The position numbers and the translations under genes are program-made. From a virus (Duplodnaviria; Caudoviricetes), in the IMG/VR virus record IMGVR_UViG_3300025121_000014, positions 1 to 64,000 of that record: a stretch of DNA of 64,000 bases. One strand, 5' to 3'. Within the stretch, counting starts at the first letter, position 1. Each line of letters begins with the position of its first letter. Below are positions 1 through 38,997 of this stretch, one piece after another. The notes beneath the pieces are model-generated. The model made no database searches. It was given only the letters and a program-made list of their open reading frames with translations, and was not told the origin of the DNA.

Positions 1-1
1 T

Positions 2-1651
2 TTAGCCAAATATTATACAGATACATTAGAAAATATCAACCAATATATTATTGAAAATAATCTTACTGATTTACCATTTAAACAACAAGTTTATCACTGG
101 TTAAATGAAATAAATCATATTATTAAATGTAAAGAATGTGATAAAAAAGTAAAATTTAAAAATAGTACAATTGGGTATTATACATTTTGTTCAAAAAAAT
201 GTATGAATAAATCTAATATAACAAAGAATAAAAGAATAAACACAAATATAAAAAATTTTGGAACAAAAACCCCATCTGAATCAGAAATAATTAAAAATAA
301 AATAATACAAACCAATATTAAAAAATATGGACATAATTGTTCTTTACAAAACAAAAAAGTTAATGAAAAATCAAAAAATACATTAAAGAAAAATTATAAT
401 GTTGATAATCCATTAAAATCAAAAATAATTCTTGATAAATTAAAAAATACTAATTTAAAAAAATATCAAGTAGATAATGTTTTAAAAAGTGATAAAATTA
501 AAAAAAAGATACAAAATACACTTATTGAAAGATACGGTGTTAATCATGCTATGAAAAATAAAAAAATTGCTAATAAAATGATTAATACATTATATGATAC
601 ACTTAATGAAAAATTACTTAAACATTATAAAGAATATAATATTTTAAATATTAATAATACTGATAGAATTTATACAATGGAATGTAAAGCAAAACACAAA
701 TTTGATATTACATACATATTATTAAATTCAAGAAGAAAAACAAATACTGAAATATGTACAATATGTAATCCTATTAATAAATCTATATCCGGATTACAAA
801 TACAATTATTGAATTTTATAAAAGAAAATTATAATAAAGAAATTATCATAAACGATAGAAATATAATTAAAATAGAATTAGATATTTACTTACCTGATTT
901 AAAATTAGCATTCGAATTTAATGGATTATATTGGCATAATGAATTATATAAATCAAAAAATTATCATAAAAATAAAACAGATTTATGTGAAGAAAATGAT
1001 ATTCAATTAATTCATATTTATGAAGACGATTGGATTTATAAACAAGATATAGTTAAATCAATGATATTAAATAAATTAGGTAAAACACCAAATAAAATTT
1101 ATGCTAGAAAAACAGAAATAAGAGAAATAACTGATAATAAATTAGTTAGAGAATTTTTAAATAGAAATCATATTCAAGGATTTGTTGGTTCAAAAGTTAA
1201 AATAGGATTATTTTATAAAGATGAATTGGTTAATTTAATAGTATTCGGTAAAAATAGAAGAATGATGTCTAATGGGGATAATAATGTAGAACTATTAAGA
1301 TTTTGTAATAAGTTAAACACTAATGTAATAGGTGGTGCTTCAAAATTATTTAAATATTTTATTAAAAAATATGATTTTAAAAATATAATTACTTATGCAG
1401 ATAGAAACCATTCAAATGGAAAATTATATGAAATTTTAGGGTTTGATTTTATACATAAAACTAAACCAAATTATTATTATATAGTCGATAAAATTAAACA
1501 ATATAGATTTAATTTTAGAAAAGACATTTTAGTTAAAAAAGGATTTAATAAAAATAAATCAGAACATGAAATTATGTTAGAAAGAGGAATTTATAGAATT
1601 TATAATTCTGGTAATATAAAATATAATTATTTAAAAAACATTCAAAAATAG
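2..1651 (+). CDS. Free-standing homing endonuclease, Hef-like (5' partial; frame open from position 2)
   Basis: Frame is open upstream of the ORF-track Met (CKEC...FCSKKC zinc motif). KYG/V-xN repeats, a PD-(D/E)xK core (ELDIYLPDLKLAFEFNG...WH) and a C-terminal IYARK...FLNRNHIQG domain. Confidence 0.7.
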   Translation, partial: LAKYYTDTLENINQYIIENNLTDLPFKQQVYHWLNEINHIIKCKECDKKVKFKNSTIGYYTFCSKKCMNKSNITKNKRINTNIKNFGTKTPSESEIIKNKIIQTNIKKYGHNCSLQNKKVNEKSKNTLKKNYNVDNPLKSKIILDKLKNTNLKKYQVDNVLKSDKIKKKIQNTLIERYGVNHAMKNKKIANKMINTLYDTLNEKLLKHYKEYNILNINNTDRIYTMECKAKHKFDITYILLNSRRKTNTEICTICNPINKSISGLQIQLLNFIKENYNKEIIINDRNIIKIELDIYLPDLKLAFEFNGLYWHNELYKSKNYHKNKTDLCEENDIQLIHIYEDDWIYKQDIVKSMILNKLGKTPNKIYARKTEIREITDNKLVREFLNRNHIQGFVGSKVKIGLFYKDELVNLIVFGKNRRMMSNGDNNVELLRFCNKLNTNVIGGASKLFKYFIKKYDFKNIITYADRNHSNGKLYEILGFDFIHKTKPNYYYIVDKIKQYRFNFRKDILVKKGFNKNKSEHEIMLERGIYRIYNSGNIKYNYLKNIQK

Positions 1652-1745
1652 TGGTTTTTTTTAGTTTATTTAATTTAATATATAATATTAACTTTTATAA
1701 AAAAAATTTTTTATATATAGTAATAGAAAAAATAATTTAAAAAAA

Positions 1746-2306
1746 ATGGCATTACCACATTTTACAAATATTGACAGTCATAATAAAAACTGGGAACCAG
1801 TTTGGAAAAATTTATTTGAAGTAGAAATATTTCTTCCTCAAATTATTGCTGATAAACACCCTCTCGGTAAAGACTTATTATTGGAAAATACTACATCAGT
1901 TAGTTTACCTATTTATCCAACATTAGGTATAAAAGATCAAAGATTTAAATATTCTACTAGACTATTTGTCGGATTACCTGATACTACTTCTATTAATGAT
2001 TTAGGTCTTACTTTTAATATTAACCAAAACGACTCAAATCAAATGTTTACTTTTAGAATGATTAAAGACTGGTATGATCTTGCTTGGAATAATGAAGATG
2101 GTTCTTCTAACTACAAGAAAAATATGCTAGGTGAAATTATCCTTTATCAACACGATAGAGAAGGACTTATTATTAGAAGAATATCTTATCATAATTGCCA
2201 AATTTTTAAATTCGCTGCTGACGAAGGACTTGATTGGTCTACTAATGATATTGCAAAATTAACTGCATCCTGGGCTGTTGATTACTGGGAAGATTACTAT
2301 TTCTAA
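1746..2306 (+). CDS. Tail tube protein, T4 gp19-like
   Basis: MALPHF...EP..KNLFEV N-terminus, WYDL...G..NYKK and terminal W.VDYW pattern typical of jumbo-phage tube proteins; late-type promoter upstream. Confidence 0.72.
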   Translation: MALPHFTNIDSHNKNWEPVWKNLFEVEIFLPQIIADKHPLGKDLLLENTTSVSLPIYPTLGIKDQRFKYSTRLFVGLPDTTSINDLGLTFNINQNDSNQMFTFRMIKDWYDLAWNNEDGSSNYKKNMLGEIILYQHDREGLIIRRISYHNCQIFKFAADEGLDWSTNDIAKLTASWAVDYWEDYYF

Positions 2307-2335
2307 AATATCTAATAATTAAGTAGTTATAATAG

Positions 2336-2364
2336 AACCTTATCTTAGTGATGAGGTTTTTTTT
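2336..2364 (+). terminator. Rho-independent terminator
   Basis: AACCTTATC/GATGAGGTT stem followed by a T-run after the tube gene. Confidence 0.5.
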
Positions 2365-2433
2365 AATATTATAAAAAGATTTTTGGGAAAACTTTAACAA
2401 AAAGATGTGTTACATTTAATATATTAAAACATT

Positions 2434-3102
2434 ATGGTAGAAATTAAAATTTGTAATAAATGTAAAGAAGAAAAAAATATATCAGATTTTTCTAAAAAAT
2501 ATAAAACAAAAGAAGGGATACAAAAATATCAACCTATTTGTAAAGTATGTTTTAATTTAGATAGTGATGTAAGAAGAAATTTACCAGGTGCAAAAGAAAA
2601 AAGAGATGCTTATGATAAAGAATTTTATATAAAAAATAGAAAAAAAATATTAGAATATAAAAAACAACATCATATAGATAATCAAAAAGAAATATTAAAA
2701 AAGAAAAAAATATACAGAGATAATAATAAAGATAAAATATTAAAATATAGGAAAAATAATAAAGAAATATATGCTAATAGTTCAAGAAGATATAGACAAA
2801 AACATCCTCATATTGTGGCTTGGCGTAATATCTTACATAGAACATTAAAATATTTAGAAATAGGTAAGAAAGGTGATACAAAAGAAATGTTAGGATATAG
2901 CGCAGCTACGTTGAAGCATCATATTGAAAAACAATTTACTGATGGAATGACCTGGGAAAATCATGGTGAATGGCATATTGATCATATATTTCCATTAACA
3001 AAATTTCCAAAAGATACTGATGTTAGTGAAGTAAATGCATTAAATAACCTACAACCATTATGGAAAGATCAAAATTGGTGTAAATCCAATAAAATATTTT
3101 AA
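2434..3102 (+). CDS. HNH homing endonuclease
   Basis: N-terminal CxxC...CxxC, basic helical linker, C-terminal WENHGEWHIDH...NNLQPLW...N HNH motif. Confidence 0.8.
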   Translation: MVEIKICNKCKEEKNISDFSKKYKTKEGIQKYQPICKVCFNLDSDVRRNLPGAKEKRDAYDKEFYIKNRKKILEYKKQHHIDNQKEILKKKKIYRDNNKDKILKYRKNNKEIYANSSRRYRQKHPHIVAWRNILHRTLKYLEIGKKGDTKEMLGYSAATLKHHIEKQFTDGMTWENHGEWHIDHIFPLTKFPKDTDVSEVNALNNLQPLWKDQNWCKSNKIF

Positions 3103-3227
3103 TATATAAATTATTATATAAATATATCAACAAATTAAAAAACTCAAATTTAATAAATTAAATGACTATTATTATATGTTATTGCCCATACTATAATAAT
3201 ATATAATTAAAAAACAATCAGTTTTAA

Positions 3228-4193
3228 ATGACAAAGAAAGATGAAAATATAAAGAAAAACCAAGATTATTTGGAAAGTTTACTAGGAAATACAAGTAGTA
3301 CAGTATCTGGTGTAAAACAACCCACACCAAAACCAATAATAGATAAAACATATGATGCACCGAGTATAGAGTATACTAGTATTAATATAGATATTTTACC
3401 AGCCGGAAGATATTATAAACGAGGCACAAAAATAATGATTAGAGGTGCTAAAGTAAGTGAGATACAAGCATATAGTATGGTAAGTGATAATTATGTAGAT
3501 ATTACAGAAAAGATGAATGAATTGTTATCTAGAAATATACGTTTTTATCATCCAGATGGTACACAAGGGAATTATAAGAATGTAAAAGATTCTGATAGAA
3601 TATTTTTAATATTTATGATAAGGGAATTAACTTTTCAAGGTGGTAATACATTAACACATTCAGTAAGTTGTGAACATTGTAAAAATGATTTTGTAATACC
3701 ATTTAGATCAACCCCTGGTAATGAAACACCAAGTACATTTAATTTACATGAACCTAATGAATTAATTGAAGATTTTTATAATAAACAAGAACAATGTTAT
3801 GAAATAATTCATAACGGAGCATCGTGGAAATTAGGACCACCAACAATTGGAATACAAGAGGATTTTTATGAAGAAATAAAAAGGAATGTACAATCAGATA
3901 AAAAACCTGATGTAGCATTTATGAAAATAATTCCATTTTTATTATATGATAGATCAAGTATAACAGATGAAGGATTAAAGGCAAAACAAAAGGAATTTCA
4001 AAATATGAATGATTTAGAATTATTTCAAGGATTAGATGAAATAATAAATAATATGAAAGTCGGCATAAAAGGATTAAAAATGAAATGTCCTGAGTGTAGT
4101 ATGGAGGTCTGCACCGACTTAACATTTCAAGGTGGGGCATCTTCCTTATTTAAACTCCCTGGCATCTTGGACAAGTTTAGAAGAAGAAAATAA
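3228..4193 (+). CDS. Baseplate hub assembly protein, T4 gp26-like
   Basis: LP..G.YY, RIFLIFMIR, two CxxC zinc motifs (CEHC, CPEC); position in the tail module. Confidence 0.55.
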   Translation: MTKKDENIKKNQDYLESLLGNTSSTVSGVKQPTPKPIIDKTYDAPSIEYTSINIDILPAGRYYKRGTKIMIRGAKVSEIQAYSMVSDNYVDITEKMNELLSRNIRFYHPDGTQGNYKNVKDSDRIFLIFMIRELTFQGGNTLTHSVSCEHCKNDFVIPFRSTPGNETPSTFNLHEPNELIEDFYNKQEQCYEIIHNGASWKLGPPTIGIQEDFYEEIKRNVQSDKKPDVAFMKIIPFLLYDRSSITDEGLKAKQKEFQNMNDLELFQGLDEIINNMKVGIKGLKMKCPECSMEVCTDLTFQGGASSLFKLPGILDKFRRRK

Positions 4194-4266
4194 TAAAATA
4201 ATAGGTAGAATATTTTCATTATTTCAAACCCCAATAGAAGACATATTAAAGAATAAATTTCAATTA

Positions 4267-4512
4267 ATGATACAAGATACAAAATGTCCAACAACAGTAT
4301 CAAATACGTGGTATTATTGGGAATATGAAGAGTATATCAAATTACTTAATGAAAAGAATAAAGAAGAAACTGAACAACAAAAGAAACAACAGGAAAATCA
4401 ATCATCACAGATGAATTCTAGTAAATTTAATCCATCAAGTGTAATGAAACAATACAATCCTTCGACCTTTATGAATAATTTTGGAAATAATACATCGTTT
4501 CCTAGAATATAA
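4267..4512 (+). CDS. Small baseplate assembly partner, gp51-like (ORF track starts at 4132; likely start 4267)
   Basis: W..WEYEEYIKLLNEK motif typical of the small gene that follows gp26-like genes. Confidence 0.5.
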   Translation: MIQDTKCPTTVSNTWYYWEYEEYIKLLNEKNKEETEQQKKQQENQSSQMNSSKFNPSSVMKQYNPSTFMNNFGNNTSFPRI

Positions 4513-13740: not shown

Positions 13741-14088
13741 TTATTGTACAATTTTTTCATTTATGTGTATCCAAATATTAGGTTGGTATTTTAATAATTT
13801 ACGATTAACTTTTTCAATTCCAAATAATAATTTAACAACATCGTAATGTTCATTCTTTAAAGCTAGTCTTATAGCTTTATTACTATCATCTGATGCATCT
13901 ACTCTTTTATCTTTTAATAATTCTTTTATAATATCTAATTGATTATCTCTACTAGATACTATTATAGCATAATTATTTTGTTCTGATGGATCAACTAAAT
14001 TACTTTCTAATAGATATTTTATAGATGCTACATTTCCACTTAAACAATTATTTAAAAATCTTTTATATAAAGTAATTGGCGCTGCCAT
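13741..14088 (-). CDS. Ankyrin-repeat protein
   Basis: DPSEQNNYAI...IIKELLKDKRVD repeats. Confidence 0.8.
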   Translation of the reverse strand: MAAPITLYKRFLNNCLSGNVASIKYLLESNLVDPSEQNNYAIIVSSRDNQLDIIKELLKDKRVDASDDSNKAIRLALKNEHYDVVKLLFGIEKVNRKLLKYQPNIWIHINEKIVQ

Positions 14089-14131: not shown

Positions 14132-14596
14132 TTATTTTTTATAGATTTTTAAAATCTTTTTTTTTCTAAAAGTAGTATTTATTTTATCATATAAATTTAA
14201 ATTATATTTCTTTAAATTATTTTTTAATATATCTATTTCAAATAAAAAATCAACAATATCATAATGTTTATTTGTATAAGCAAATTCAATAGATTCATAA
14301 TTATTATCTAAATCTAATCTTTTATCGGATAAAAGTATTTTAAGAATTTTAATATAACCATTACCTGCTGCTTGACTAAAAGCATAATTATTATAATCAG
14401 ATGGATTGACTTCTGGAAAATTTAAAATAAATTTTACTAAATCTAAATTACCATGTTCACAAGCTAAACCAATAGGATAATTTTGTTTTATATTTACTAA
14501 AGAATTATTTTTGTTAATTAAATCTTTTATTTCGTTAACTTGATTTTTATCAAATAAACTAATAAAATCTATAATATGGTTTTCTTCAAATAGCAT
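14132..14596 (-). CDS. Ankyrin-repeat protein with C-terminal RxxK tag
   Basis: LACEHGNLDLVKFIL, QAAGNGYIKILKILL; ends FRKKKILKI. Confidence 0.8.
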   Translation of the reverse strand: MLFEENHIIDFISLFDKNQVNEIKDLINKNNSLVNIKQNYPIGLACEHGNLDLVKFILNFPEVNPSDYNNYAFSQAAGNGYIKILKILLSDKRLDLDNNYESIEFAYTNKHYDIVDFLFEIDILKNNLKKYNLNLYDKINTTFRKKKILKIYKK

Positions 14597-14613
14597 GTAT
14601 TAAAAATTAAAAA

Positions 14614-15711
14614 TTATTTAAAATCTCGCTTATCAACAGACCATCTAAAATCTTCATATTTGAAATGTTTTTCATATGCTGCCATAATACCTTCAAATGT
14701 TATATCGTTTAATATAGGTTCTATATTCCACTTTTCTGGTGATATTAAATGACCTATTTTACTATATCTATTTATTTCATTTTTTCTAAATAACACAGTA
14801 TAAAAATCTTTCATTATATTAAATCTTTCTTCTGTTAAGTATACACTAGGATTTGTTAATATTTCTTTATAAACATTTAATACTTCATCAACATTTTCAT
14901 TATCTGTTACTAAACTTGTTGATAATAATCCTTGATTTGCGGATATAGAATTTATAAAAGTAGATACACCATAAGTCAATCCTCTTTTTTCTCGCAATTC
15001 ATTATAAAACGGTGATTTTAATGACCCACTTAATATAGCAATAATAAATTTTATATAACAAAAATCTTCTACAATTAATTTATATCCTATAATAGATGAT
15101 TTATCAAAATCTGCTCTTTTTTCTATTATTATTTTTGTATCTGAAGTTTTATAATTATTATTATTAAGTTTAGCAAAATCTGTATATCCACTGAATTCAG
15201 AATACTTAGATACATTAATTATTATACTTGGTTTTTTCATATAAATATTATAAAATTTTAACATATTAGTATATGTTAAATTATTTAATGATTCATATTT
15301 ACCAATTGGTCCATAATGACCCAAATAATATCTCATTACATTTGAATAATGTGCATCACCTTGATCTTGAAAATGATCAATATATTCTTGTAAAATTATA
15401 TTTTTCTCAGTATTAAATTGTTCTTCAGTTATATTAAATTGTAATAATGAATTTAATAACTTATCTTTATACATATTAATGTATTCATCTAATCCTGTCA
15501 TATGAAATACAACGTTATTATTTGACGTAAATGCATTCCAATTTATTCCAAATCTATCGAAGTCATCATAAAGATCTTCAAATTGTTTGCAAAGCAAATG
15601 TTCAATTATATGCGACACCCCAAACGACTTAGGTGTTTCATTAAGAACCGCACCATTAAATACTATGTAAAAACCTGAGAAATCATTTTGTGATTTTAAA
15701 TTATATATCAT
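14614..15711 (-). CDS. M16-family zinc peptidase (single half)
   Basis: GVSHIIEH inverted HxxEH, NAFTS, EKNIILQE, ELREKRGLTY. Confidence 0.88.
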   Translation of the reverse strand: MIYNLKSQNDFSGFYIVFNGAVLNETPKSFGVSHIIEHLLCKQFEDLYDDFDRFGINWNAFTSNNNVVFHMTGLDEYINMYKDKLLNSLLQFNITEEQFNTEKNIILQEYIDHFQDQGDAHYSNVMRYYLGHYGPIGKYESLNNLTYTNMLKFYNIYMKKPSIIINVSKYSEFSGYTDFAKLNNNNYKTSDTKIIIEKRADFDKSSIIGYKLIVEDFCYIKFIIAILSGSLKSPFYNELREKRGLTYGVSTFINSISANQGLLSTSLVTDNENVDEVLNVYKEILTNPSVYLTEERFNIMKDFYTVLFRKNEINRYSKIGHLISPEKWNIEPILNDITFEGIMAAYEKHFKYEDFRWSVDKRDFK

Positions 15712-15889
15712 ATTTTTTATCTTTTTTTGTTTAATTATATATTAAATAGATTATTTAATTTATTTATTTTTTTAGTCTATTTAATAATAAAAGTCTTTGT
15801 TTATTTCTTTCAATCATTTCATTCATTATTACTATTACTTCTGCATAATTAGTAGCATTAAATGTTTTCATCATATTTTCCATCATTTT

Positions 15890-16315
15890 TTAATCATTAT
15901 TATTTTGGTTCATCTTTTTTAAAATATTAGATATCTTTTTTGATCTTAATTCTAATTTTTCCATAAAGTTAAATTTCCAATCAAAATCTGTAATATTTAA
16001 ATTTATTTTATCATTATTGGTATAATTAAAATTTTTATAATTTAAAACTGGTTTAAAATCTATGAATTGTATAATTTTATTTAATTTAGATGAATCTAAA
16101 GTAGATTCAAAATTCGCAGTAAGTTCATAATTTTTTTCATTATATTTTATATCAGTAATAGTTATGAAAAAATTATTTTTTGGAAAATCTGAAATATAAT
16201 TATATCGTGTTCCAACTAATATACGTTCTATTTTAATTTCTATATTATATTCATTTTTTAATTCATCGATATTAATATTATAATATTCATTAAATTTTTG
16301 GATTAATGCTTTCAA
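15890..16315 (-). CDS. RxxK-tagged protein; degenerate prohead-protease-like fold
   Basis: ITITDIKYNEKNYELTANFEST...FKP aligns by eye with 17462-17917; ends LRSKKISNI. Confidence 0.4.
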   Translation of the reverse strand: MKALIQKFNEYYNINIDELKNEYNIEIKIERILVGTRYNYISDFPKNNFFITITDIKYNEKNYELTANFESTLDSSKLNKIIQFIDFKPVLNYKNFNYTNNDKINLNITDFDWKFNFMEKLELRSKKISNILKKMNQNNND

Positions 16316-16856
16316 TGCTATTCATTATTTTTTCTACTTTTAAATATCTTAATTTTAACAAAGGTAAATATTTACAACTGAAATTAAATTTAAATCCACT
16401 AAAATCTTCTATTTGTATACAATTATAATAAAACTTGTCTATATTAATTCCACCATATTTTTCAATAATATTATTAATAGATATGGACATTTGTTCTATA
16501 ATAGTATGTTCTATATGTTGTTGTAACGAAAAATATGCTATATTCATTTCTTGCAAATGTTCGTGTGATAAACTGATAGATGTTGTAATTTTTTGGCAAT
16601 TTATAGTATCATTTTTTATAAAATCTATAAAATTTACATTATCTAAATTATTCAATTTATTTAATGTTATTAAATTCATTGATAACATATTAAAATCATA
16701 TATAGTGTTATTTTGATTACTATGTTCATTAAGAAAATAATCTGACATTCTTTCACAATATTTTGCAATTTTTATATAATTTTTAGGATTTATATTAGTT
16801 AAATTACCAAATATAGGTATCCATTTTTGCAATAATCTACTATCACTACTATTCAT
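16290..16856 (-). CDS. RxxK-tagged protein; weak major-capsid-like segments
   Basis: LLQKWIPI...KYCE...LNE resembles a capsid propeptide; SLSHEHLQEM...EQMS..IN resembles a gp23 core segment; ends LRYLKVEKI. Confidence 0.35.
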   Translation of the reverse strand: MNSSDSRLLQKWIPIFGNLTNINPKNYIKIAKYCERMSDYFLNEHSNQNNTIYDFNMLSMNLITLNKLNNLDNVNFIDFIKNDTINCQKITTSISLSHEHLQEMNIAYFSLQQHIEHTIIEQMSISINNIIEKYGGINIDKFYYNCIQIEDFSGFKFNFSCKYLPLLKLRYLKVEKIMNSIESINPKI

Positions 16857-17094
16857 AATTTTTAATTATTTTATTTAATTTTAATTTTCTAAGTTTAACA
16901 TTTTCTTCTTTAATAATTTTTAAAGTGTATTTTTCCCAAAAAATTTCATTTTCATTTATAAAATTGGGTGTTACTTGTTTAATTATTTGTTTATCATTAG
17001 CAAATTTAAATATTATCATTACTTTTTCTCCACCGTCATATACACTACTAATAGATAATATTCCATGTTGTTCTAAAAAAATTTCACTTATCAT
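16849..17094 (-). CDS. RxxK-tagged hypothetical protein
   Basis: Ends LRKLKLNKI. Confidence 0.55.
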   Translation of the reverse strand: MISEIFLEQHGILSISSVYDGGEKVMIIFKFANDKQIIKQVTPNFINENEIFWEKYTLKIIKEENVKLRKLKLNKIIKNYE

Positions 17095-17095
17095 T

Positions 17096-17461
17096 TCACT
17101 TATTAATTATTTTATTTAATTTTAACAATCTTAAATATACAACATATTTATCCATATCTATATCTATATTACCAATTGGCAAATTAATAACTTTACGAAC
17201 GAATATATTAAATCTATTTGTTATAGTTATAGTTATCATGATAATACCTTGATCTATTATATCAGGTGGGTTATTAGTTTCATCACATTTAACCCAAAAA
17301 TCTTTTGAATAAATATTTTTATTTAAAATTCTTTTTGTTAAATCGTATTTTAATTTATTTCTAGTATCTTGTGTATTAAATTTATAATCATAATAATGAA
17401 ATAGTTCAAAATATGATGTATAAATAGCGGCATCAATTAATTTATCCGAATCGATTATCAT
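17096..17461 (-). CDS. RxxK-tagged miniature tail-sheath C-terminal domain
   Basis: FNTQDTR...DFWVKCDETNNPPDIID matches the gp18 C-terminal F.N...TR...V.CD.TNNTP.VID pattern; ends LRLLKLNKI. Confidence 0.7.
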   Translation of the reverse strand: MIIDSDKLIDAAIYTSYFELFHYYDYKFNTQDTRNKLKYDLTKRILNKNIYSKDFWVKCDETNNPPDIIDQGIIMITITITNRFNIFVRKVINLPIGNIDIDMDKYVVYLRLLKLNKIINK

Positions 17462-17917
17462 TTAATTTTTTATATTGTTTAATATATTTAATATTTTTTT
17501 TGATCTTAATTTTAATATATTAGTGTATTCTTTAAATGAATCTTCTTCAACTGGAATTGCATCAAACGTAATTAAATTTGTTAATATAGTATAACCATTT
17601 TCATCAACATTTCCAATTCCGCGTGGACGAAATACTATTGTATTTGTATTAAGTAAATCATTTAATATATTACCATTTGGTGTATTTAATATTTCTACTT
17701 CACCCATTAAATAATTATTTTTTAATTCTATATTTGTTATTAAATGGGATACCCTAGATAAAGATATATCCATTTCACCCATACCTAATTCACCATATAA
17801 TCTTCCATTATCTATTTTTTCTTTTAATTTATTAAAATCAATTGATTCTTTTGTATAAATCCTATTATTTAAATTTTTAAATCCAAATGGTATTAAATTA
17901 ACTTTTATCTTTTTCAT
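17462..17917 (-). CDS. RxxK-tagged prohead protease (gp21-like) paralog, predicted inactive
   Basis: NNRIY, LYGELG, VSHLIT, GEVEILNTPNG, RG.G and FDA present; GELxHP His and SSRG Ser replaced (GELGMG, FRPRG). Confidence 0.8.
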   Translation of the reverse strand: MKKIKVNLIPFGFKNLNNRIYTKESIDFNKLKEKIDNGRLYGELGMGEMDISLSRVSHLITNIELKNNYLMGEVEILNTPNGNILNDLLNTNTIVFRPRGIGNVDENGYTILTNLITFDAIPVEEDSFKEYTNILKLRSKKILNILNNIKN

Positions 17918-18266
17918 ATTTTATAATTTCCTTTTTTATTTTATCACATTCAATATAATCTTCTATTTCTAATGCTTTTACAAAATTTACATATAAAAGA
18001 AACAATTCTTTATTACCTAAAACTTCTATCAAATCTATTTGTATTTGCATAATATTAATAAGATTATCATGATTATTTATAAATAAATCAATTATTTCTG
18101 TTTGTAAATTAATTAAATATTCTAATTTATCTATATCTTTATTTAAAATATCAGACGATTTTGTAATATTTTTACTCTGTAATTCTTTTAATGTATTAGA
18201 ACTATCATCAAATTCACTCATTAATTCAAGAAATTCTTTTATTATGTTAATATTTTCTTCATCCAT
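17898..18266 (-). CDS. Coiled-coil protein with UVR-like C-terminus
   Basis: ALEIEDYIECDKIKKEI. Confidence 0.45.
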   Translation of the reverse strand: MDEENINIIKEFLELMSEFDDSSNTLKELQSKNITKSSDILNKDIDKLEYLINLQTEIIDLFINNHDNLINIMQIQIDLIEVLGNKELFLLYVNFVKALEIEDYIECDKIKKEIIKYEKDKS

Positions 18267-18291
18267 TTCTTATTTAATTATTTTTAATATT

Positions 18292-18307
18292 TGTTCCACG
18301 TGGAACA
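18292..18307. promoter_or_regulatory. parS-type palindrome
   Basis: Perfect intergenic TGTTCCACGTGGAACA; identical core at 55600-55615. Confidence 0.85.
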
Positions 18308-18313
18308 TTATAT

Positions 18314-18556
18314 TTATATTTTTGTAATTAATCTATTTAGTTTATATCTTCGTAATTGTTTAGTATCTAAAAAATATTTTTTCCATCCACCCCTTACAGC
18401 ATGAATTTTTTTATTTTCATCTATTAAACAATAACCATCTAAATCAACATCAACTATTCTATAATATTTTCCTTTTATAAAATCTATTTTTTCAGAATCA
18501 GAATCATAAGGTTCTTTCATATATAATGTATATTTACAATATAAATATTTTAACAT
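18314..18556 (-). CDS. RxxK-tagged small protein (paralog of 18550-18786)
   Basis: FIKGKYY...WKKYFLDTKQLRRYKLNRL. Confidence 0.6.
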   Translation of the reverse strand: MLKYLYCKYTLYMKEPYDSDSEKIDFIKGKYYRIVDVDLDGYCLIDENKKIHAVRGGWKKYFLDTKQLRRYKLNRLITKI

Positions 18557-18786
18557 TTCATTAATTTTTTAATTTTTAATCTTCTTAATTGTATAGTATC
18601 TAAAAAATATTGCTTCCAAGAATATGGTCCATTAGATAATTTTTCTTTATTATTTAATTCATTTGTGACTATAACACTATTTTTTGAATTATTCATATTA
18701 TAATCTTGTTTATAATATTTACCTTTTATGAAACGTATTTCATTTTTAAATCCTAAATTTTTAGTACAATACAAATAATTATTCAT
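18550..18786 (-). CDS. RxxK-tagged small protein
   Basis: FIKGKYY...WKQYFLDTIQLRRLKIKKL. Confidence 0.6.
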   Translation of the reverse strand: MNNYLYCTKNLGFKNEIRFIKGKYYKQDYNMNNSKNSVIVTNELNNKEKLSNGPYSWKQYFLDTIQLRRLKIKKLMKC

Positions 18787-19420
18787 TTTTAATTAATTTT
18801 AATATTTTATCTCGTCTATCGTGTCTTTCCCATATTATTCTTTTATCTAATATATCAACACTAATTATATTTTCATGGTCATCTATATCTTTTAAAATTA
18901 TATTTTTTAAATATGGAAATTTAACACTTTTCCACCAATTATTTAGTTGTTCTTTTTTACAATCTGGTTTAACATAAATTTTACCTGAATCATTATATCC
19001 ACTAATTATACTTGGCATTCCTTTAAAATATATCTTTTTATACTTTAATTTAGAAAAATTTGTTAATTTTAATTTATCCATTAATTCGTCTAATTCATAT
19101 ATAATACTTCGTGCTTTATTAAAAGCATAATCTAAATCTTTTGCATAACATTCATAAATGATAGTTTTATTTAAATTAATTGTAATATTACTAAATCCTT
19201 TTACAAATGAATTTTTAATAATATTACCTTGTTTAATATCTATATCCCAGCATCTTTTATTAATATTTTTTTCGGTATAAGGAACATATTTTTCTTCTTT
19301 ACTAAAAAGATTATTATCCATTTTTATCCATAATGTACCATTATCATGTTCTTTATCTGGAATATCTACAACAGTATATATTGCACCTCTAATCAAGATA
19401 TCATTTACAATATTTTTCAT
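18779..19420 (-). CDS. RxxK-tagged hypothetical protein
   Basis: Ends DRRDKILKL. Confidence 0.6.
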   Translation of the reverse strand: MKNIVNDILIRGAIYTVVDIPDKEHDNGTLWIKMDNNLFSKEEKYVPYTEKNINKRCWDIDIKQGNIIKNSFVKGFSNITINLNKTIIYECYAKDLDYAFNKARSIIYELDELMDKLKLTNFSKLKYKKIYFKGMPSIISGYNDSGKIYVKPDCKKEQLNNWWKSVKFPYLKNIILKDIDDHENIISVDILDKRIIWERHDRRDKILKLIKNE

Positions 19421-19523
19421 TTATTATATTATTCATTATTTTTTTAATCTTTTCCCTTCTGATATAATCATTATAACGAATAGATTTTCCTGTTTTCTTA
19501 CTAGTTATCCAATTTTCGTCCAT
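19401..19523 (-). CDS. 40-aa RxxK-tagged micro-protein (not in ORF track)
   Basis: MDENWITSKKTGKSIRYNDYIRREKIKKIMNNIINEKYCK; overlaps both neighbours in operon fashion. Confidence 0.5.
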   Translation of the reverse strand: MDENWITSKKTGKSIRYNDYIRREKIKKIMNNIINEKYCK

Positions 19524-19740
19524 TTATATAATTCATTATTTTTTTTATCTTTCTTTTTCTTAAATTGTGTATTTCATATTCACTATAACTTATATTATGT
19601 GATATACGTTCAGCAATATATTCTGAATAACTTATACCATGTGATATACGTTCAGCAAGATGTTCTGAATAACTTATATTTATATTATGTGATATATGTT
19701 CAGCAAGATATTCTGAACAACTTGTATTTATATTAATCAT
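19501..19740 (-). CDS. RxxK-tagged protein made of SYSEY[LI]AE repeats (scaffold-like)
   Basis: Four ISYSE(Y/H)(L/I)AE(R/H)ISH-type units, also visible as DNA repeats; ends LRKRKIKKI. Confidence 0.55.
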   Translation of the reverse strand: MININTSCSEYLAEHISHNINISYSEHLAERISHGISYSEYIAERISHNISYSEYEIHNLRKRKIKKIMNYINGRKLDN

Positions 19741-19937
19741 AATGTATTTATTATTTTTTCTAATTTTTGTTTTCTTTTTTTTAATATATCTTTATCAATT
19801 AACCATTCAGTATATCTTATTATATCTTCTTTTGTTACCCCACCAGGTAAATCAACTAATTTAACCATAGTTATAGCTAAATCATAATATCCGTCTTCTA
19901 TTATTGTTTCTATTGATTTACTCATAATCCATTTCAA
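19737..19937 (-). CDS. RxxK-tagged small protein
   Basis: Ends KRKQKLEKI. Confidence 0.55.
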   Translation of the reverse strand: MKWIMSKSIETIIEDGYYDLAITMVKLVDLPGGVTKEDIIRYTEWLIDKDILKKRKQKLEKIINTL

Positions 19938-20316
19938 CTATATTTTGTAATATCCGATTTAATTTTATTCTTCTTAAAAGTAAAAACTCATTTTCTTGTC
20001 CAATATATGCATATCTAATTATATATTCACCTGTATGCATATCCTTTTTAAAAAAGCATTTTTCTTCTAAAGGTATGTATATAACAACCTTATATTGTAA
20101 TTGTTTAATAACATTTATGAAATGATTTAAATTTTTAAATTTAGTATACTTAACACTTACATTTTGATTTATTACTCTAGGTTCACCGTTTATTTTTTTA
20201 ACATAATAATTTACAAATACTGGAATGAAAACATATTTTATTTTTGATATATCTACATCTAATCCTTCAAATAACATATTATTTATTTTTTCTAATTCTT
20301 TGGTTATTGTTGACAC
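19918..20316 (-). CDS. RxxK-tagged protein (weak capsid C-terminus-like YIPL...IRYA)
   Basis: Ends LRRIKLNRI. Confidence 0.5.
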   Translation of the reverse strand: MSTITKELEKINNMLFEGLDVDISKIKYVFIPVFVNYYVKKINGEPRVINQNVSVKYTKFKNLNHFINVIKQLQYKVVIYIPLEEKCFFKKDMHTGEYIIRYAYIGQENEFLLLRRIKLNRILQNIVEMDYE

Positions 20317-20696
20317 TTCATTAATCTTTCAATTTTATATTTTCTAATATATTCCATAGTATGTATTTGTATTATGGAATAATCTACATTGAATTCTATT
20401 AGAATAATATTATCATCATCATAGATATAATCTTTAATGAATATACCATGTAAAATAAGTGATTTAGTATCATCAAAAATTTTTATTTTACTACATTTAT
20501 GTCTATGTTCATCCTGCATATATTTTATTAAATTAAATAAATTATAATCATCTTTTCTATTTGGTAGTAATTTACATTCTAAAATATAATCCAATTCAAC
20601 AATATCGTGATTGATATCTTCTGAATATTTAAATTTTGAATTAAAAAAATCAAATATTTTATCTTCTATTTTTATTAAAAATCCATTAAATATCAT
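20304..20696 (-). CDS. RxxK-tagged protein (weak tube-like beta pattern)
   Basis: IKIFD...LHG.F...IEFNVDY; ends IRKYKIERL. Confidence 0.5.
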   Translation of the reverse strand: MIFNGFLIKIEDKIFDFFNSKFKYSEDINHDIVELDYILECKLLPNRKDDYNLFNLIKYMQDEHRHKCSKIKIFDDTKSLILHGIFIKDYIYDDDNIILIEFNVDYSIIQIHTMEYIRKYKIERLMKCQQ

Positions 20697-20895
20697 TTAT
20701 TAATCTCTTTAATTTTTTATATCTAGCCCACATATTTACTAATACCATATTTACCATCATATAATTTTTACTTGTATATGGTTTATATGTTATATAAACC
20801 AAATTTTCAGTAAATGGTGGTTTAGTCATATATGTATAATCAGTTATTCCTTTTTCTGTTTCTAGATAAATATCTAATAATTGTTTATTGAACAT
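20686..20895 (-). CDS. RxxK-tagged small protein
   Basis: Ends ARYKKLKRL. Confidence 0.55.
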   Translation of the reverse strand: MFNKQLLDIYLETEKGITDYTYMTKPPFTENLVYITYKPYTSKNYMMVNMVLVNMWARYKKLKRLINDI

Positions 20896-21118
20896 TTAAT
20901 TTCTTTATTTTTTTACTTCTTAACCATTTAATATAACCAGATTTATCTAATCCAAAACCTTTTGTATCTCTATTATTTAATTTTACATAATCATCTAATA
21001 TTCTAATTATTATCGATTTATCTATTACTTTTATTGTTTCGATCATTTTATCGGTATATTGTGTGTTACTACACCAATAATTTAAATATTCAATTATAAG
21101 TTTATTATCGTATTCCAT
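20885..21118 (-). CDS. RxxK-tagged small protein
   Basis: Ends LRSKKIKKL. Confidence 0.55.
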   Translation of the reverse strand: MEYDNKLIIEYLNYWCSNTQYTDKMIETIKVIDKSIIIRILDDYVKLNNRDTKGFGLDKSGYIKWLRSKKIKKLNVQ

Positions 21119-21336
21119 TTAATATTTTGTTTAATTTTTTACTTCTTAACCATAAATCAAAATCTTCTTTTTTTACAAATTTATCGGCAATTTTATTTTT
21201 TTTTATAATAATTGTTAGAAAAATTAACATATATGAAATTCCATTTATCTAATTTTATTAAATTCGGTCTTATTTTAGAAATATCATTTATTTGCACATT
21301 TAAATATTTTGATATAATATTTTTATTTAATTCCAT
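21105..21336 (-). pseudogene. RxxK-tagged gene frameshifted at an A9 tract (21196-21204)
   Basis: MELNKNIISKYLN...NNYYKKK* in one frame; ...KIADKFVKKEDFDLWLRSKKLNKILNGIR* in the adjacent frame. Span is 77 codons + 1 nt; paralog of 21323-21556. Confidence 0.65.
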
Positions 21337-21556
21337 TTAATATTTTTTCTAATTTTTTACTTCTTTCCCAAATATGATAATCATTATATCTTATTATTTC
21401 ATTAAATGTTTTAATTTTTATACCATATTCATTAGTAAAATAAACTAAAAAATAAATCAATTTAAATTTAAATATTAATATTCTATCAATATCATCAACA
21501 TTAATATTTAAATATTCAGCTACACTTTCTTTACTTGGTTCTATCAGTTTTATCAT
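21323..21556 (-). CDS. RxxK-tagged small protein
   Basis: Ends ERSKKLEKILNGIK. Confidence 0.6.
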   Translation of the reverse strand: MIKLIEPSKESVAEYLNINVDDIDRILIFKFKLIYFLVYFTNEYGIKIKTFNEIIRYNDYHIWERSKKLEKILNGIK

Positions 21557-21633
21557 ATTTTTTAGAAAAAGTTTTCCAATACTTAAGGTAGTAAATATTA
21601 TTCTTTAAAACAAATTTTTAATATATAAAATGT

Positions 21634-23301
21634 ATGAAAACTTTTAAAGAATTTATAAATGAAAATATTAAAGATTTACTTCAAGGTAGATCAGAAGATG
21701 ATATAGAAAAAAGATTAGAAGGATTAGATGATATAGAAAAAATTAAAATGGTACTTCAATATGATTTACCAGAAAAATATTTACCCCAAAAATATTACGA
21801 TATAGTAAACGAATACATTACAAGTATTAAAAATAGTGTTAAAGAATTAAAAAATATATTAAATAAACCTGTAATTAACGTGGAAAGTTATATTGAAATA
21901 TTTAATACAATAATATTAGCATATACACATTTTTCTAATGTTGAAGATCAATATGATGATTTAGAAGTAGATGAAATTATTCATGAAATTTCTGAATTAG
22001 ACGAAGATAGAATAAAAATTATAGTTTGGTATAATTATACAGATGATTATGAAACGTTTTATACAACATATGATAAACTTAATTTTTTTGATTTAGATAT
22101 GCTCGATAAAAAATTAAAAAAAGCGATTAAAACTTTTAATTCTATTAATGAAAATATTAAAGATTTACTTCAACCAAAATCTGATGATGAAATAATTAAA
22201 GCATTAGAAGGTTTATCTGATTCAGATAAGATAAAACAAATAATTATAAATCAATTAGATTTTAATTTATTACCTCGAAATAAAGATGGAATATGTTTAT
22301 ATGATGATTGGTTAATAATATCTAAATCGAATATAACAGAATTACCAGATAATTTATTAGTAAAAGGTTGGGTATTATGTGATCATAATAAATTATCTAA
22401 ATTACCAAAAGGTTTAACTGTTTTAGGATCACTTTATTGTCAACATAATTTATTAACAGAAATACCAAATGACATTTATGTTAAAGGAAAGTTATTATGT
22501 TACGATAATGCAAAAGTATTAGAATTGCCCGATGGAGCTGAAGTTGGAGAATTCCAAAACATTGAAGTTATAGAATCAATGTATGAAAGTGTAAAAGATT
22601 TGCTTCAACCAAAATCTTATGATGAAATTAAAAAGAATTTAAATTATTTAAATGCATTTGACAAAACAAATATGATTATAAAATATCAATTAGATAGTAA
22701 ATTAATGCCGTCAAAAGATGATATGATTAAATCATTAGATGTTGTAAACACATTAGATAAAATAAGATATATTTATAGATTTGATTTACCAAAAAAATAT
22801 TTACCTTCGGATAAAGATATAAAAGAAGCATTAAAAAATGTTTCTGTTCCTAGTATAATATCATGGGTAAGAACATTTAAATTATCTGAAAAATTATTAC
22901 CAATTTTAAATAAAATAAAAGAACATATTAAAAAATTAGATAATAATGATCAAATAATGTTCATATTTGAAAATGGACTACCCTATGATTTATTACCTAG
23001 AACTAAAGATGGTATATGTAAATTTTATAAATATTATAATACTGATTTAAATATTCAAAATATTGGTTTAACTAAATTACCAGATAATTTAACAGTATAT
23101 AATAATTTAGATTGTAGTAATAATAATTTAAAAGAATTACCAAAAGGCTTAAAGGTTTATAAACATTTATTTTGTGATAGTAATTTATTAACTGAATTAC
23201 CTGATGACTTATATGTGATGGGTGATGTATATTGTGGTAATAATAAAGCAAAACTAAAATTACCAAAAGGCGCTGTTGTTATAGGAGAAATTATTAATTA
23301 A
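21634..23301 (+). CDS. CTS-bearing modular polyprotein with three DLL-KS modules and LRR-like solenoids
   Basis: MKTFKEFINE; ENIKDLLQGRS, ENIKDLLQPKS, ESVKDLLQPKS; two LPDNL.V.G.L.C..N.L repeat blocks. Confidence 0.7.
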   Translation: MKTFKEFINENIKDLLQGRSEDDIEKRLEGLDDIEKIKMVLQYDLPEKYLPQKYYDIVNEYITSIKNSVKELKNILNKPVINVESYIEIFNTIILAYTHFSNVEDQYDDLEVDEIIHEISELDEDRIKIIVWYNYTDDYETFYTTYDKLNFFDLDMLDKKLKKAIKTFNSINENIKDLLQPKSDDEIIKALEGLSDSDKIKQIIINQLDFNLLPRNKDGICLYDDWLIISKSNITELPDNLLVKGWVLCDHNKLSKLPKGLTVLGSLYCQHNLLTEIPNDIYVKGKLLCYDNAKVLELPDGAEVGEFQNIEVIESMYESVKDLLQPKSYDEIKKNLNYLNAFDKTNMIIKYQLDSKLMPSKDDMIKSLDVVNTLDKIRYIYRFDLPKKYLPSDKDIKEALKNVSVPSIISWVRTFKLSEKLLPILNKIKEHIKKLDNNDQIMFIFENGLPYDLLPRTKDGICKFYKYYNTDLNIQNIGLTKLPDNLTVYNNLDCSNNNLKELPKGLKVYKHLFCDSNLLTELPDDLYVMGDVYCGNNKAKLKLPKGAVVIGEIIN

Positions 23302-38846: not shown

Positions 38847-38997
38847 ATTATTAGAATATTTAAATGCTTATAAAATAGATTATATTAATGATAATGATAG
38901 AAAAAGAAAACTTAAAAATATAGTTAATAATATATTCCAATTAAAAGAAAATACTATATCTAATTTTAATTTATTTAAGCATAAATTATTGATTTAA
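38833..38997 (+). CDS. 54-aa ORF sharing its first 20 nt with the 35838 gene
   Basis: MLDFKLLEYLNAYKIDYINDNDRKRKLKNIV... Confidence 0.35.
   Translation: MLDFKLLEYLNAYKIDYINDNDRKRKLKNIVNNIFQLKENTISNFNLFKHKLLI

Follow-up and report, generated by a model that had tools for sequence, protein, structure and literature searches.

Why should a row of small phage genes, most of them encoding proteins of different sequence, end in nearly the same basic peptide? The question is raised by a stretch of 64,000 nucleotides (nt) from a member of the Caudoviricetes (Duplodnaviria), positions 1 to 64,000 of IMG/VR virus record IMGVR_UViG_3300025121_000014, the whole of which is referred to here as the window. 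On its minus strand, from 21556 down to 14132, lies an array of 22 tightly packed and mostly overlapping open reading frames (ORFs), 18 of which carry the motif R-x-x-K-[ILV]-x-x-[ILV] between 11 and 19 codons ahead of the stop codon. All 18 copies listed in a preliminary description of this DNA were present at the genes named there, at that same distance from the stop, and a stricter form, [LI]-R-x-x-K-[ILV]-x-[KR]-[IL], holds for all 18 listed genes. As set out below, this C-terminal element, hereafter the tag, is a selected, portable, helical peptide borne by diverse small proteins of a fixed and fast-evolving array.

The tag is far more frequent than residue composition predicts. When the final 25 residues of each of the 22 array genes were shuffled, 0.44 matches were expected versus the 18 observed, and the most matches found in any run was 6 (200,000 simulations); enrichment over composition-matched C-termini, on which the preliminary description had staked its motif, is thus confirmed. 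The body residues of the array genes (n = 1,942) contained one match. A six-frame scan of the window returned 33 matches, including the 18 array tags; none of the others lay 8–22 codons before the stop of an ORF of at least 30 amino acids (aa), and a relaxed expression added only two weak cases. Approximately 270 kb of unrelated IMG/VR DNA, drawn from a search with a 20-mer of the tag (33 chance matches without C-terminal tags), contained six C-terminal matches, i.e., 0.02 per kb versus 2.4 per kb in the array. A 19th copy, degenerate (R-L-L-L-L-N-R-L, with L for K), ends a 40-aa ORF of the array (15764–15886, minus strand). A 54-aa ORF at 38899, just past a 1002-aa gene, contains a tag-like D-R-K-R-K-L-K-N-I-V-N-N-I 32 codons before its stop and is the sole tag-like copy of that sort outside the array.

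Three related contigs with similar arrays were found, designated L005, L056, and L057 (GC content 20–27%). L005 (2.9 kb, 20% GC) was reached via the one 70% identical homologue of the 213-aa array protein; 10–11 of its 12 ORFs are tagged, and three of its genes are orthologous to window genes. A profile of the ~75-aa members of the array, searched against 1.84 billion representatives, yielded three further members, whose contigs, L056 and L057, have 27% GC and carry tags on 13 of 13 and six of nine small ORFs, respectively. Over the four contigs there are 47 tags, and 55 bodies fall into 46 BLASTP clusters (E < 1e-3). The consensus of 28 aligned copies is a hydrophobic residue at −3, [LI] at −1, an invariant R at 0, K at +3, [IL] at +4, [KR] at +6, [IL] at +7, [MIL] at +8, and [NK] at +9; the core as used over all copies allows [ILV] at +4, and over the 47 tags R(0) is invariant and K(+3) occurs in 45. 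The L056 array begins beside a divergent homologue of window gene 21634–23301, a leucine-rich repeat (LRR) gene that is divergent from the window array and starts, like genes with a capsid-targeting sequence (CTS), with MKTFKEF. The intergenic region between array and LRR gene (21557–21633 in the window, L056:3156–3230) is strongly conserved between the two phages, and this conservation of both neighbor and intergenic region indicates that the array keeps a fixed place in the genome even as the genes within it come and go. The conserved region includes TATATA directly upstream of the CTS-type gene, and the same motif class precedes many window genes.

The sequence evidence indicates that the tag acts at the protein level. 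All 18 array tags lie in one frame with their own ORF, and a DNA weight matrix (33-nt sites) run over the 64 kb detected no out-of-frame or intergenic copy. The information content of tag DNA has a 3-base period with peaks at codon positions 1 and 2. Over the 47 tags, R is encoded by AGA, AGG, or CGA and K by AAA or AAG, while +4 is encoded by ATA, TTA, ATT, CTA, GTA, TTG, or CTT, and +6 by AAA, AGA, or AAG plus one CGG; orthologous tags show I/L and K/R exchanges.

AlphaFold models place the tag in a terminal helix, spanning residues 129–150 of the 151-aa protein encoded by 17462–17917 (predicted local distance difference test (pLDDT) 56–68, versus ~90 for the body) and residues 133–153 of the ankyrin-repeat protein encoded by 14132–14596. 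On a helical wheel, positions −3, 0, +4, +7, and +8 line up in a single seam, centered on the invariant Arg, and K(+3) and K(+6) lie on one flank; the 12-residue core has a net charge of approximately +4. The tags show no clean apolar face, and their mean hydrophobic moment is lower than that of shuffles (0.27 vs. 0.36) because the Arg sits in the seam. As modeled, this anatomy argues for a docking helix with a specific protein interface and a buried salt bridge, rather than for a membrane anchor. Two of the roles offered by the preliminary description are disfavored. Membrane-targeting helices of the MinD/FtsA type combine a high moment with a clean apolar face, while the tags have a low moment and an Arg within the hydrophobic seam. 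A degron read at the free C-terminus is disfavored as well, since ssrA- and MuA-type signals place their motif at the extreme C-terminus, and the 3–11 variable, unconserved residues that follow the tag core argue against signals of this kind. A docking or localization role, as a C-terminal counterpart of the CTS system, is plausible.

Only a few of the bodies resemble anything known. Searches of all bodies against Pfam and PHROGs recognized only ankyrin repeats, a gp21-like body, and a weak sheath match, and ESM Atlas, used for two orphan bodies, gave low-confidence models without usable neighbors. The 154-aa product of 14132–14596 (minus strand; tag FRKKKILKIY, 14141–14170) contains ankyrin repeats (Pfam, 6e-17); an untagged ankyrin paralogue is encoded at 13741–14088 (minus strand, 39% identity), and the alignment of the two ends where the tag starts. 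The 151-aa product of 17462–17917 (minus strand; tag LRSKKILNIL, 17480–17509) has a body that represents a miniature prohead protease of the T4 gp21 type (PHROG 207 at 1e-15; homologues carry PF03420), and its AlphaFold model (pLDDT 87.5) matches 5JBL with a template modeling score of 0.60 and a probability of 1.00. This protein is probably inactive, to judge from the replacement of the family motifs G-H-P and S-S-R, which we take to hold the catalytic His and Ser, by G-M-G and R-P-R, as is also the case in 149–153-aa homologues. The same body occurs without a tag in its nearest homologues from other phages, P0019 (48% identity), P0020, and P0021, and in LR756501; P0019 terminates exactly where the tag would begin, while the LR756501 homologue (L001:7968–8504) ends in an unrelated DPYGEENW. 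These untagged homologues of the ankyrin and gp21-like bodies indicate that the helix was added to pre-existing bodies, and the comparison supports a tag that is portable across unrelated folds (ankyrin and gp21-type). The earlier view of the bodies as unrelated is borne out by BLASTP, except for one paralogue pair (18314–18556 and 18550–18786) and a diverged paralogue family of ~75-aa proteins (21323–21556, 20885–21118, 20686–20895, and their relatives) that align end to end. Portability has likewise withstood scrutiny in the sense of a protein-level module that sits on different bodies, is lacking from homologues, and is kept through heavy gene turnover.

We consider it fairly probable that the tag is a docking helix for a partner common to the proteins that carry it. 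As the sequences show, the tag spread within one hyperplastic tandem array through duplication and in-frame capture of foreign bodies, and selection retained it while the bodies turned over; its helix would tether all tagged small proteins to one common acidic pocket. The preferred partner would be the head during its assembly, at the inner surface or in the core, and the tag would then be a scaffold-like head-loading signal beside the N-terminal, T4-type CTS. Taken as a whole, i.e., a portable protein-level docking helix with head loading as the preferred reading, this explanation is one that we favor tentatively and at somewhat less than even confidence; the head as the shared partner is a possibility that we rate a little lower. 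Broader still, and in our view rather doubtful, is the idea that a lineage of very AT-rich huge phages has a second, uncleaved C-terminal head-loading code, orthogonal to the CTS and mimicking the coat-binding end of a scaffold. The head is preferred for four reasons. The source phage is T4-like, and peptide tags (N-terminal CTS) already serve it for loading proteins; of the tagged bodies, the only one with a recognized family is a component of the prohead core; the phage P22 scaffold binds coat through a basic C-terminal helix that has R-x-x-K spacing and loads cargo; and the T4 core protein gp68 ends in a basic/aliphatic tail.

Several known systems resemble the tag in part. The minimal capsid-binding region of the P22 scaffold gp8 comprises residues 280–296, with R293 and K296 as key residues, and its C-terminal helix (YRKLKAKLKGIR) can be transferred as a tag to cargo, which it then carries into procapsids (PMC9962691). 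Like the tag, it is C-terminal and basic with interspersed aliphatic residues and the same R-x-x-K spacing, and in two models the tag likewise forms a basic helix within ~20 residues of the C-terminus. However, the P22 element is a 36-residue helix-turn-helix on one dedicated scaffold protein, whereas the tag is modeled as a single terminal helix, for a longer version of which the 40-aa member is too short, and is a label on dozens of small proteins. The T4 CTS (found on IPI, IPII, IPIII, and Alt) is also a short peptide on unrelated cargo in a T4-like phage, and the genome studied here is rich in CTS-like leaders; the CTS is, however, N-terminal, acidic/aromatic (MKTYQEF-type), and cut after [LI]-x-E by gp21, whereas the tag is C-terminal and basic, has no cleavage site, and occurs in one array. 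A C-terminal propeptide has been proposed to target the prohead protease of SPN3US (S77-type, gp245) into the prohead core (PMC7411985). The gp21 fold of the tagged protein 17462–17917 recalls this case, but canonical gp21 homologues have other C-termini than the tag (F-x-x-F-L-S-K-I-[RK] or E-A-M-K-K-A-L), and neither the catalytic His motif nor the Ser motif is present in the tagged protein. Cargo-loading peptides of encapsulins are short C-terminal labels that bring unrelated cargo into an HK97-fold shell; they differ in being extended and rich in Gly, Ser, and Leu, and their genes adjoin a shell gene, none of which was seen here. Lastly, the array resembles the hyperplastic regions of T4-like phages in its dense tiny orphan genes, fast turnover, and conserved genome position. 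The repeated elements of those regions are non-coding cassettes between genes, whereas the element repeated here is a translated, selected peptide. The tag profile matched PDB sequences at E ~1 only, and no family, structure, or published description of the motif was found in Pfam, the PDB, or the literature; in concept, the tag varies a known theme, that of portable targeting peptides.

A number of observations weigh against head loading. The tag is restricted to one array and not dispersed as CTS genes are, which fits local evolutionary spread and is unexpected for a general address code. No consistent T4-type [LI]-x-E cleavage site accompanies the tags; I-W-E precedes the Arg in two genes only. 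The P22 helix shows no sequence homology to the tag and fails the hydrophobic part of the motif, its residues at +4 (A) and +7 (K) not being the I, L, or V that the tag requires; the two are therefore alike in kind only. In distant megaphages, fusions of protease and scaffold have a different end, I-[LM]-E-R-F-K-N-[IL]. When T4-like phages carry tiny orphan genes packed into tight arrays, these are typically early genes for host takeover. The lysine-rich positions of the tag overlap the A-rich initiation region (−19 to −11) of the next gene, and the lysine richness may thus be partly dual-coded. The source phage's own protease, scaffold, and capsid protein were not found: the capsid protein is absent from the window, and the protease-scaffold, sought with the LR756502 homologue as query, was not among the best 120 of >4,000 close megaphage matches.

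A docking helix could also serve a partner outside the virion, such as a host hub (chaperone, protease adaptor, RNA polymerase, or ribosome) or a phage regulator, and the array would then encode host-takeover or anti-defense proteins that share one adaptor or a timed-turnover signal. The layout of tiny overlapping orphan genes with fast turnover between relatives, as in T4-like hyperplastic regions, is what such a set of genes would look like; ankyrin repeats typically bind host proteins, and basic/aliphatic C-terminal ClpX signals exist (MuA-type RRKKAI class). Given, however, that 3–11 variable residues follow the motif, unlike in free-C-terminus signals, and that the only body with a recognized family is a head-assembly protein, we regard a non-virion partner as unlikely, if worth keeping in view. 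Less probable again is that the helix is the remnant of one fast-diverging paralogue family, kept as a short coiled coil for self- or hetero-oligomerization. The end-to-end alignment of the ~75-aa members, of which more occur in other metagenomes, the near identity in DNA of some neighboring tags, and the heptad-like a/d spacing of positions −3, 0, +4, +7, and +8 would all be expected, but the ankyrin and gp21-fold bodies cannot descend from the ~75-aa family, and their untagged homologues show that the helix was an addition; moreover, an invariant core Arg is unfavorable for homomeric packing, and the helix extends over no more than about two to three heptads.

Three further explanations appear poorer still. 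If the tags bound nucleic acid (AT-rich phage DNA, or RNA), they would tether their proteins to the genome or to RNA, as the core net charge of approximately +4, the invariant Arg, and the basic character of T4 internal proteins and gp68 might suggest; the conserved aliphatic residues between the charges suggest a protein interface instead, and Pfam and PDB searches revealed no likeness to known binding motifs, so that we give this reading little credence. Hardly better is the notion that the untagged M16 (HxxEH) peptidase encoded in the array (14614–15711, minus strand, 365 aa) recognizes the tags or cuts at them, much as mitochondrial processing peptidase relies on an Arg to read basic presequences. 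This gene is co-oriented with the tagged genes and embedded among them, it retains HxxEH and the downstream E-x-x-x-x-x-x-E, and M16B enzymes recognize Arg-containing basic helices. The peptidase occurs, however, at 36–43% identity in four distant megaphages that have no tagged array near M16, or indeed near other homologues of array genes; the tag profile gave only scattered weak matches, and no arrays, across five megaphage genomes, and the L056 and L057 arrays have no M16 gene within their contigs. The least credible of all is an element conserved at the nucleic-acid level (a promoter, a signal for translation initiation or coupling, or a recombination cassette for the next gene) and translated only by accident. 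An ATG does follow 16–45 nt past the Arg codon in ~40 of the 47 cases, the tag of the window array lies 25–45 nt ahead of the next start codon in most junctions, and the phage has almost no Shine-Dalgarno sites and prefers A-rich regions at −19 to −11, but the steady distance to the next ATG is explained more simply if the next gene begins as soon as the helix ends, and the frequent N-G at +9/+10 is accounted for by the overlapping ATG itself. Against such an element stand the single reading frame, the absence of intergenic and out-of-frame copies, the 3-periodic information, and substitutions that conserve amino acids rather than bases, as well as three tags kept without a close downstream gene (18314–18556, 15890–16315, and 14132–14596) and an overlapping junction that works untagged (18266/17917); we therefore consider this explanation largely refuted.

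Few phage systems rely on a short peptide as a portable address. The chief examples are the T4 CTS, scaffold C-termini, and the loading peptides of encapsulins, all of which have been turned into tools. In the present case, a 10-residue helix is found on 47 proteins with 46 sequence-distinct bodies in four contigs of uncultivated huge phages, proteins that are otherwise dark matter. Through the tag, dozens of orphan genes become accessible to experiment together, and the array illustrates how genes in tandem can acquire new domains in frame. If the head is the partner, the prohead would take in >40 unrelated small proteins, the dead prohead protease and the ankyrin protein among them, and might pass them on to the host; megaphages would then package and eject a larger set of proteins, through two channels, and the tag would be a ready-made portable encapsidation label of 10–12 residues. 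If the partner is instead a host hub, the array would represent a library of effectors sharing one adaptor.

The array, all of whose genes are on the minus strand, begins with a 77-aa gene of the ~75-aa family (21323–21556; tag ERSKKLEKIL, 21338–21367), followed by a gene that is split by a frameshift in an A9 run into an untagged 47-aa ORF (5′ half, 21193–21336) and a 41-aa ORF (3′ half, 21105–21230; tag LRSKKLNKIL, 21120–21149); the intact 90-aa orthologue is L005:419–691. The A9 run is common to all identical assemblies, and the frameshift may represent either a real mutation or a gene corrected by slippage. Next come a 77-aa gene with orthologues in three other contigs (20885–21118; tag LRSKKIKKLN, 20894–20923), a 69-aa gene (20686–20895; tag ARYKKLKRLI, 20698–20727), a 130-aa gene (20304–20696; tag IRKYKIERLM, 20319–20348), a 132-aa gene whose tag (19918–20316; LRRIKLNRIL, 19948–19977) has the CGG codon for its Arg at +6, a 66-aa gene orthologous to L005:1351–1554 (19737–19937; tag KRKQKLEKII, 19749–19778), and a 79-aa gene with an internal SYSEY-type repeat (19501–19740; tag LRKRKIKKIM, 19534–19563). 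The 40-aa ORF 19401–19523 (tag IRREKIKKIM, 19434–19463) is barely more than a tag; the preliminary description had pointed to a 40-aa member of this kind, and this ORF is indeed genuine and stands alone, its position being held in L005 by a 58-aa tagged ORF, while the 41-aa ORF 21105–21230 is a frameshift fragment. The block is completed by the 213-aa orphan (18779–19420; tag DRRDKILKLI, 18791–18820), whose 70% identical orthologue P0018 retains RRDKIINI, and by the paralogue pair, which comprises a 78-aa gene (18550–18786; tag LRRLKIKKLM, 18559–18588) and an 80-aa gene (18314–18556; tag LRRYKLNRLI, 18326–18355).

The 80-aa gene is followed by no overlapping gene but by a 47-nt spacer, the only sizeable one in the array, in which a perfect palindrome or hairpin, TGTTCCACGTGGAACA (18292–18307), divides the array into two blocks. 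This palindrome, located in the stretch 18292–18318, is 16 nt long with the core CACGTG, and ahead of it lies TATAAATA, overlapping the stop codon of the upstream gene. By sequence, the two may provide the second block with a T4-late-like promoter, next to a terminator or an operator; TATAAATA, an 8-mer, is frequent by chance in AT-rich DNA of this kind. Sigma-70-like sites, which would point to promoters of individual genes, were no commoner than in shuffles. The second block opens with an untagged, acidic, helix-rich 122-aa protein (17898–18266), which is followed by the gp21-fold gene, a 121-aa gene with a weak likeness to a tail-sheath C-terminus (17096–17461; tag LRLLKLNKII, 17105–17134), an 81-aa gene (16849–17094; tag LRKLKLNKII, 16864–16893), a 188-aa orphan (16290–16856; tag LRYLKVEKIM, 16323–16352), and a 141-aa orphan (15890–16315; tag LRSKKISNIL, 15920–15949); the ORF with the degenerate tag, the M16 peptidase gene, and the tagged ankyrin gene complete the block. 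Complex prediction for the acidic 122-aa protein with the 40-aa tagged ORF gave no support for a pairing, a result that speaks neither for nor against one. Homologues of the M16 peptidase in the megaphages are ~365–375 aa long, and a more distant one is Bacillus phage G gp2; the peptidase seems to be a core gene and perhaps clears propeptides.

The window has a GC content of ~20%, and the same array is present as identical copies in several groundwater assemblies; groundwater samples with this phage include the PRJNA292723 runs. The nearest phage relatives of the window proteins are uncultured megaphages of 600–735 kb (LR7565xx and LR745206); protein searches of IMG/VR found no close relatives. 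Only three of the 57 larger window genes have a Shine-Dalgarno-like site, and positions −19 to −11 before window genes are 58–72% A, which is the Bacteroidota style of initiation and hints at Bacteroidota as the host group. A scan of Joint Genome Institute metagenomes with the pair of 213-aa proteins returned nothing. One assembly, L044, joins 30% GC DNA with a PMT_2 glycosyltransferase gene (positions 1–3790) to the array, and the joint falls exactly where the 213-aa gene starts; it is probably an assembly chimera.

Miniature gp21-fold proteins of 149–178 aa are found beside the true protease in several huge phages; the 149–153-aa forms lack G-H-P and S-S-R, while the 178-aa form of LR756501 lacks the His motif and keeps a Ser. 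Phage proteases have been reported, in a 2026 preprint, to activate the anti-phage system CBASS (PMC12991175), and a role of the miniature proteins as protease decoys or regulators is worth a look. The L057 array is followed, at positions 2427–4271, by the gene of a protein (at least 615 aa) that starts in CTS-like fashion (MKHINNY), contains a TPM-phosphatase domain, and has a tail rich in Gly, Ser, and Phe. In LR756501.1 (735 kb), the hexapeptide D-P-Y-G-E-E, mostly followed by x-W, occurs 109 times, versus 0 for the reversed pattern. It was considered as an equivalent C-terminal tag and rejected, since its sites are N-terminal, internal, and C-terminal alike in many different proteins of that phage; the hexapeptide appears to be a separate phenomenon, a junction or tag motif spread over that whole genome.

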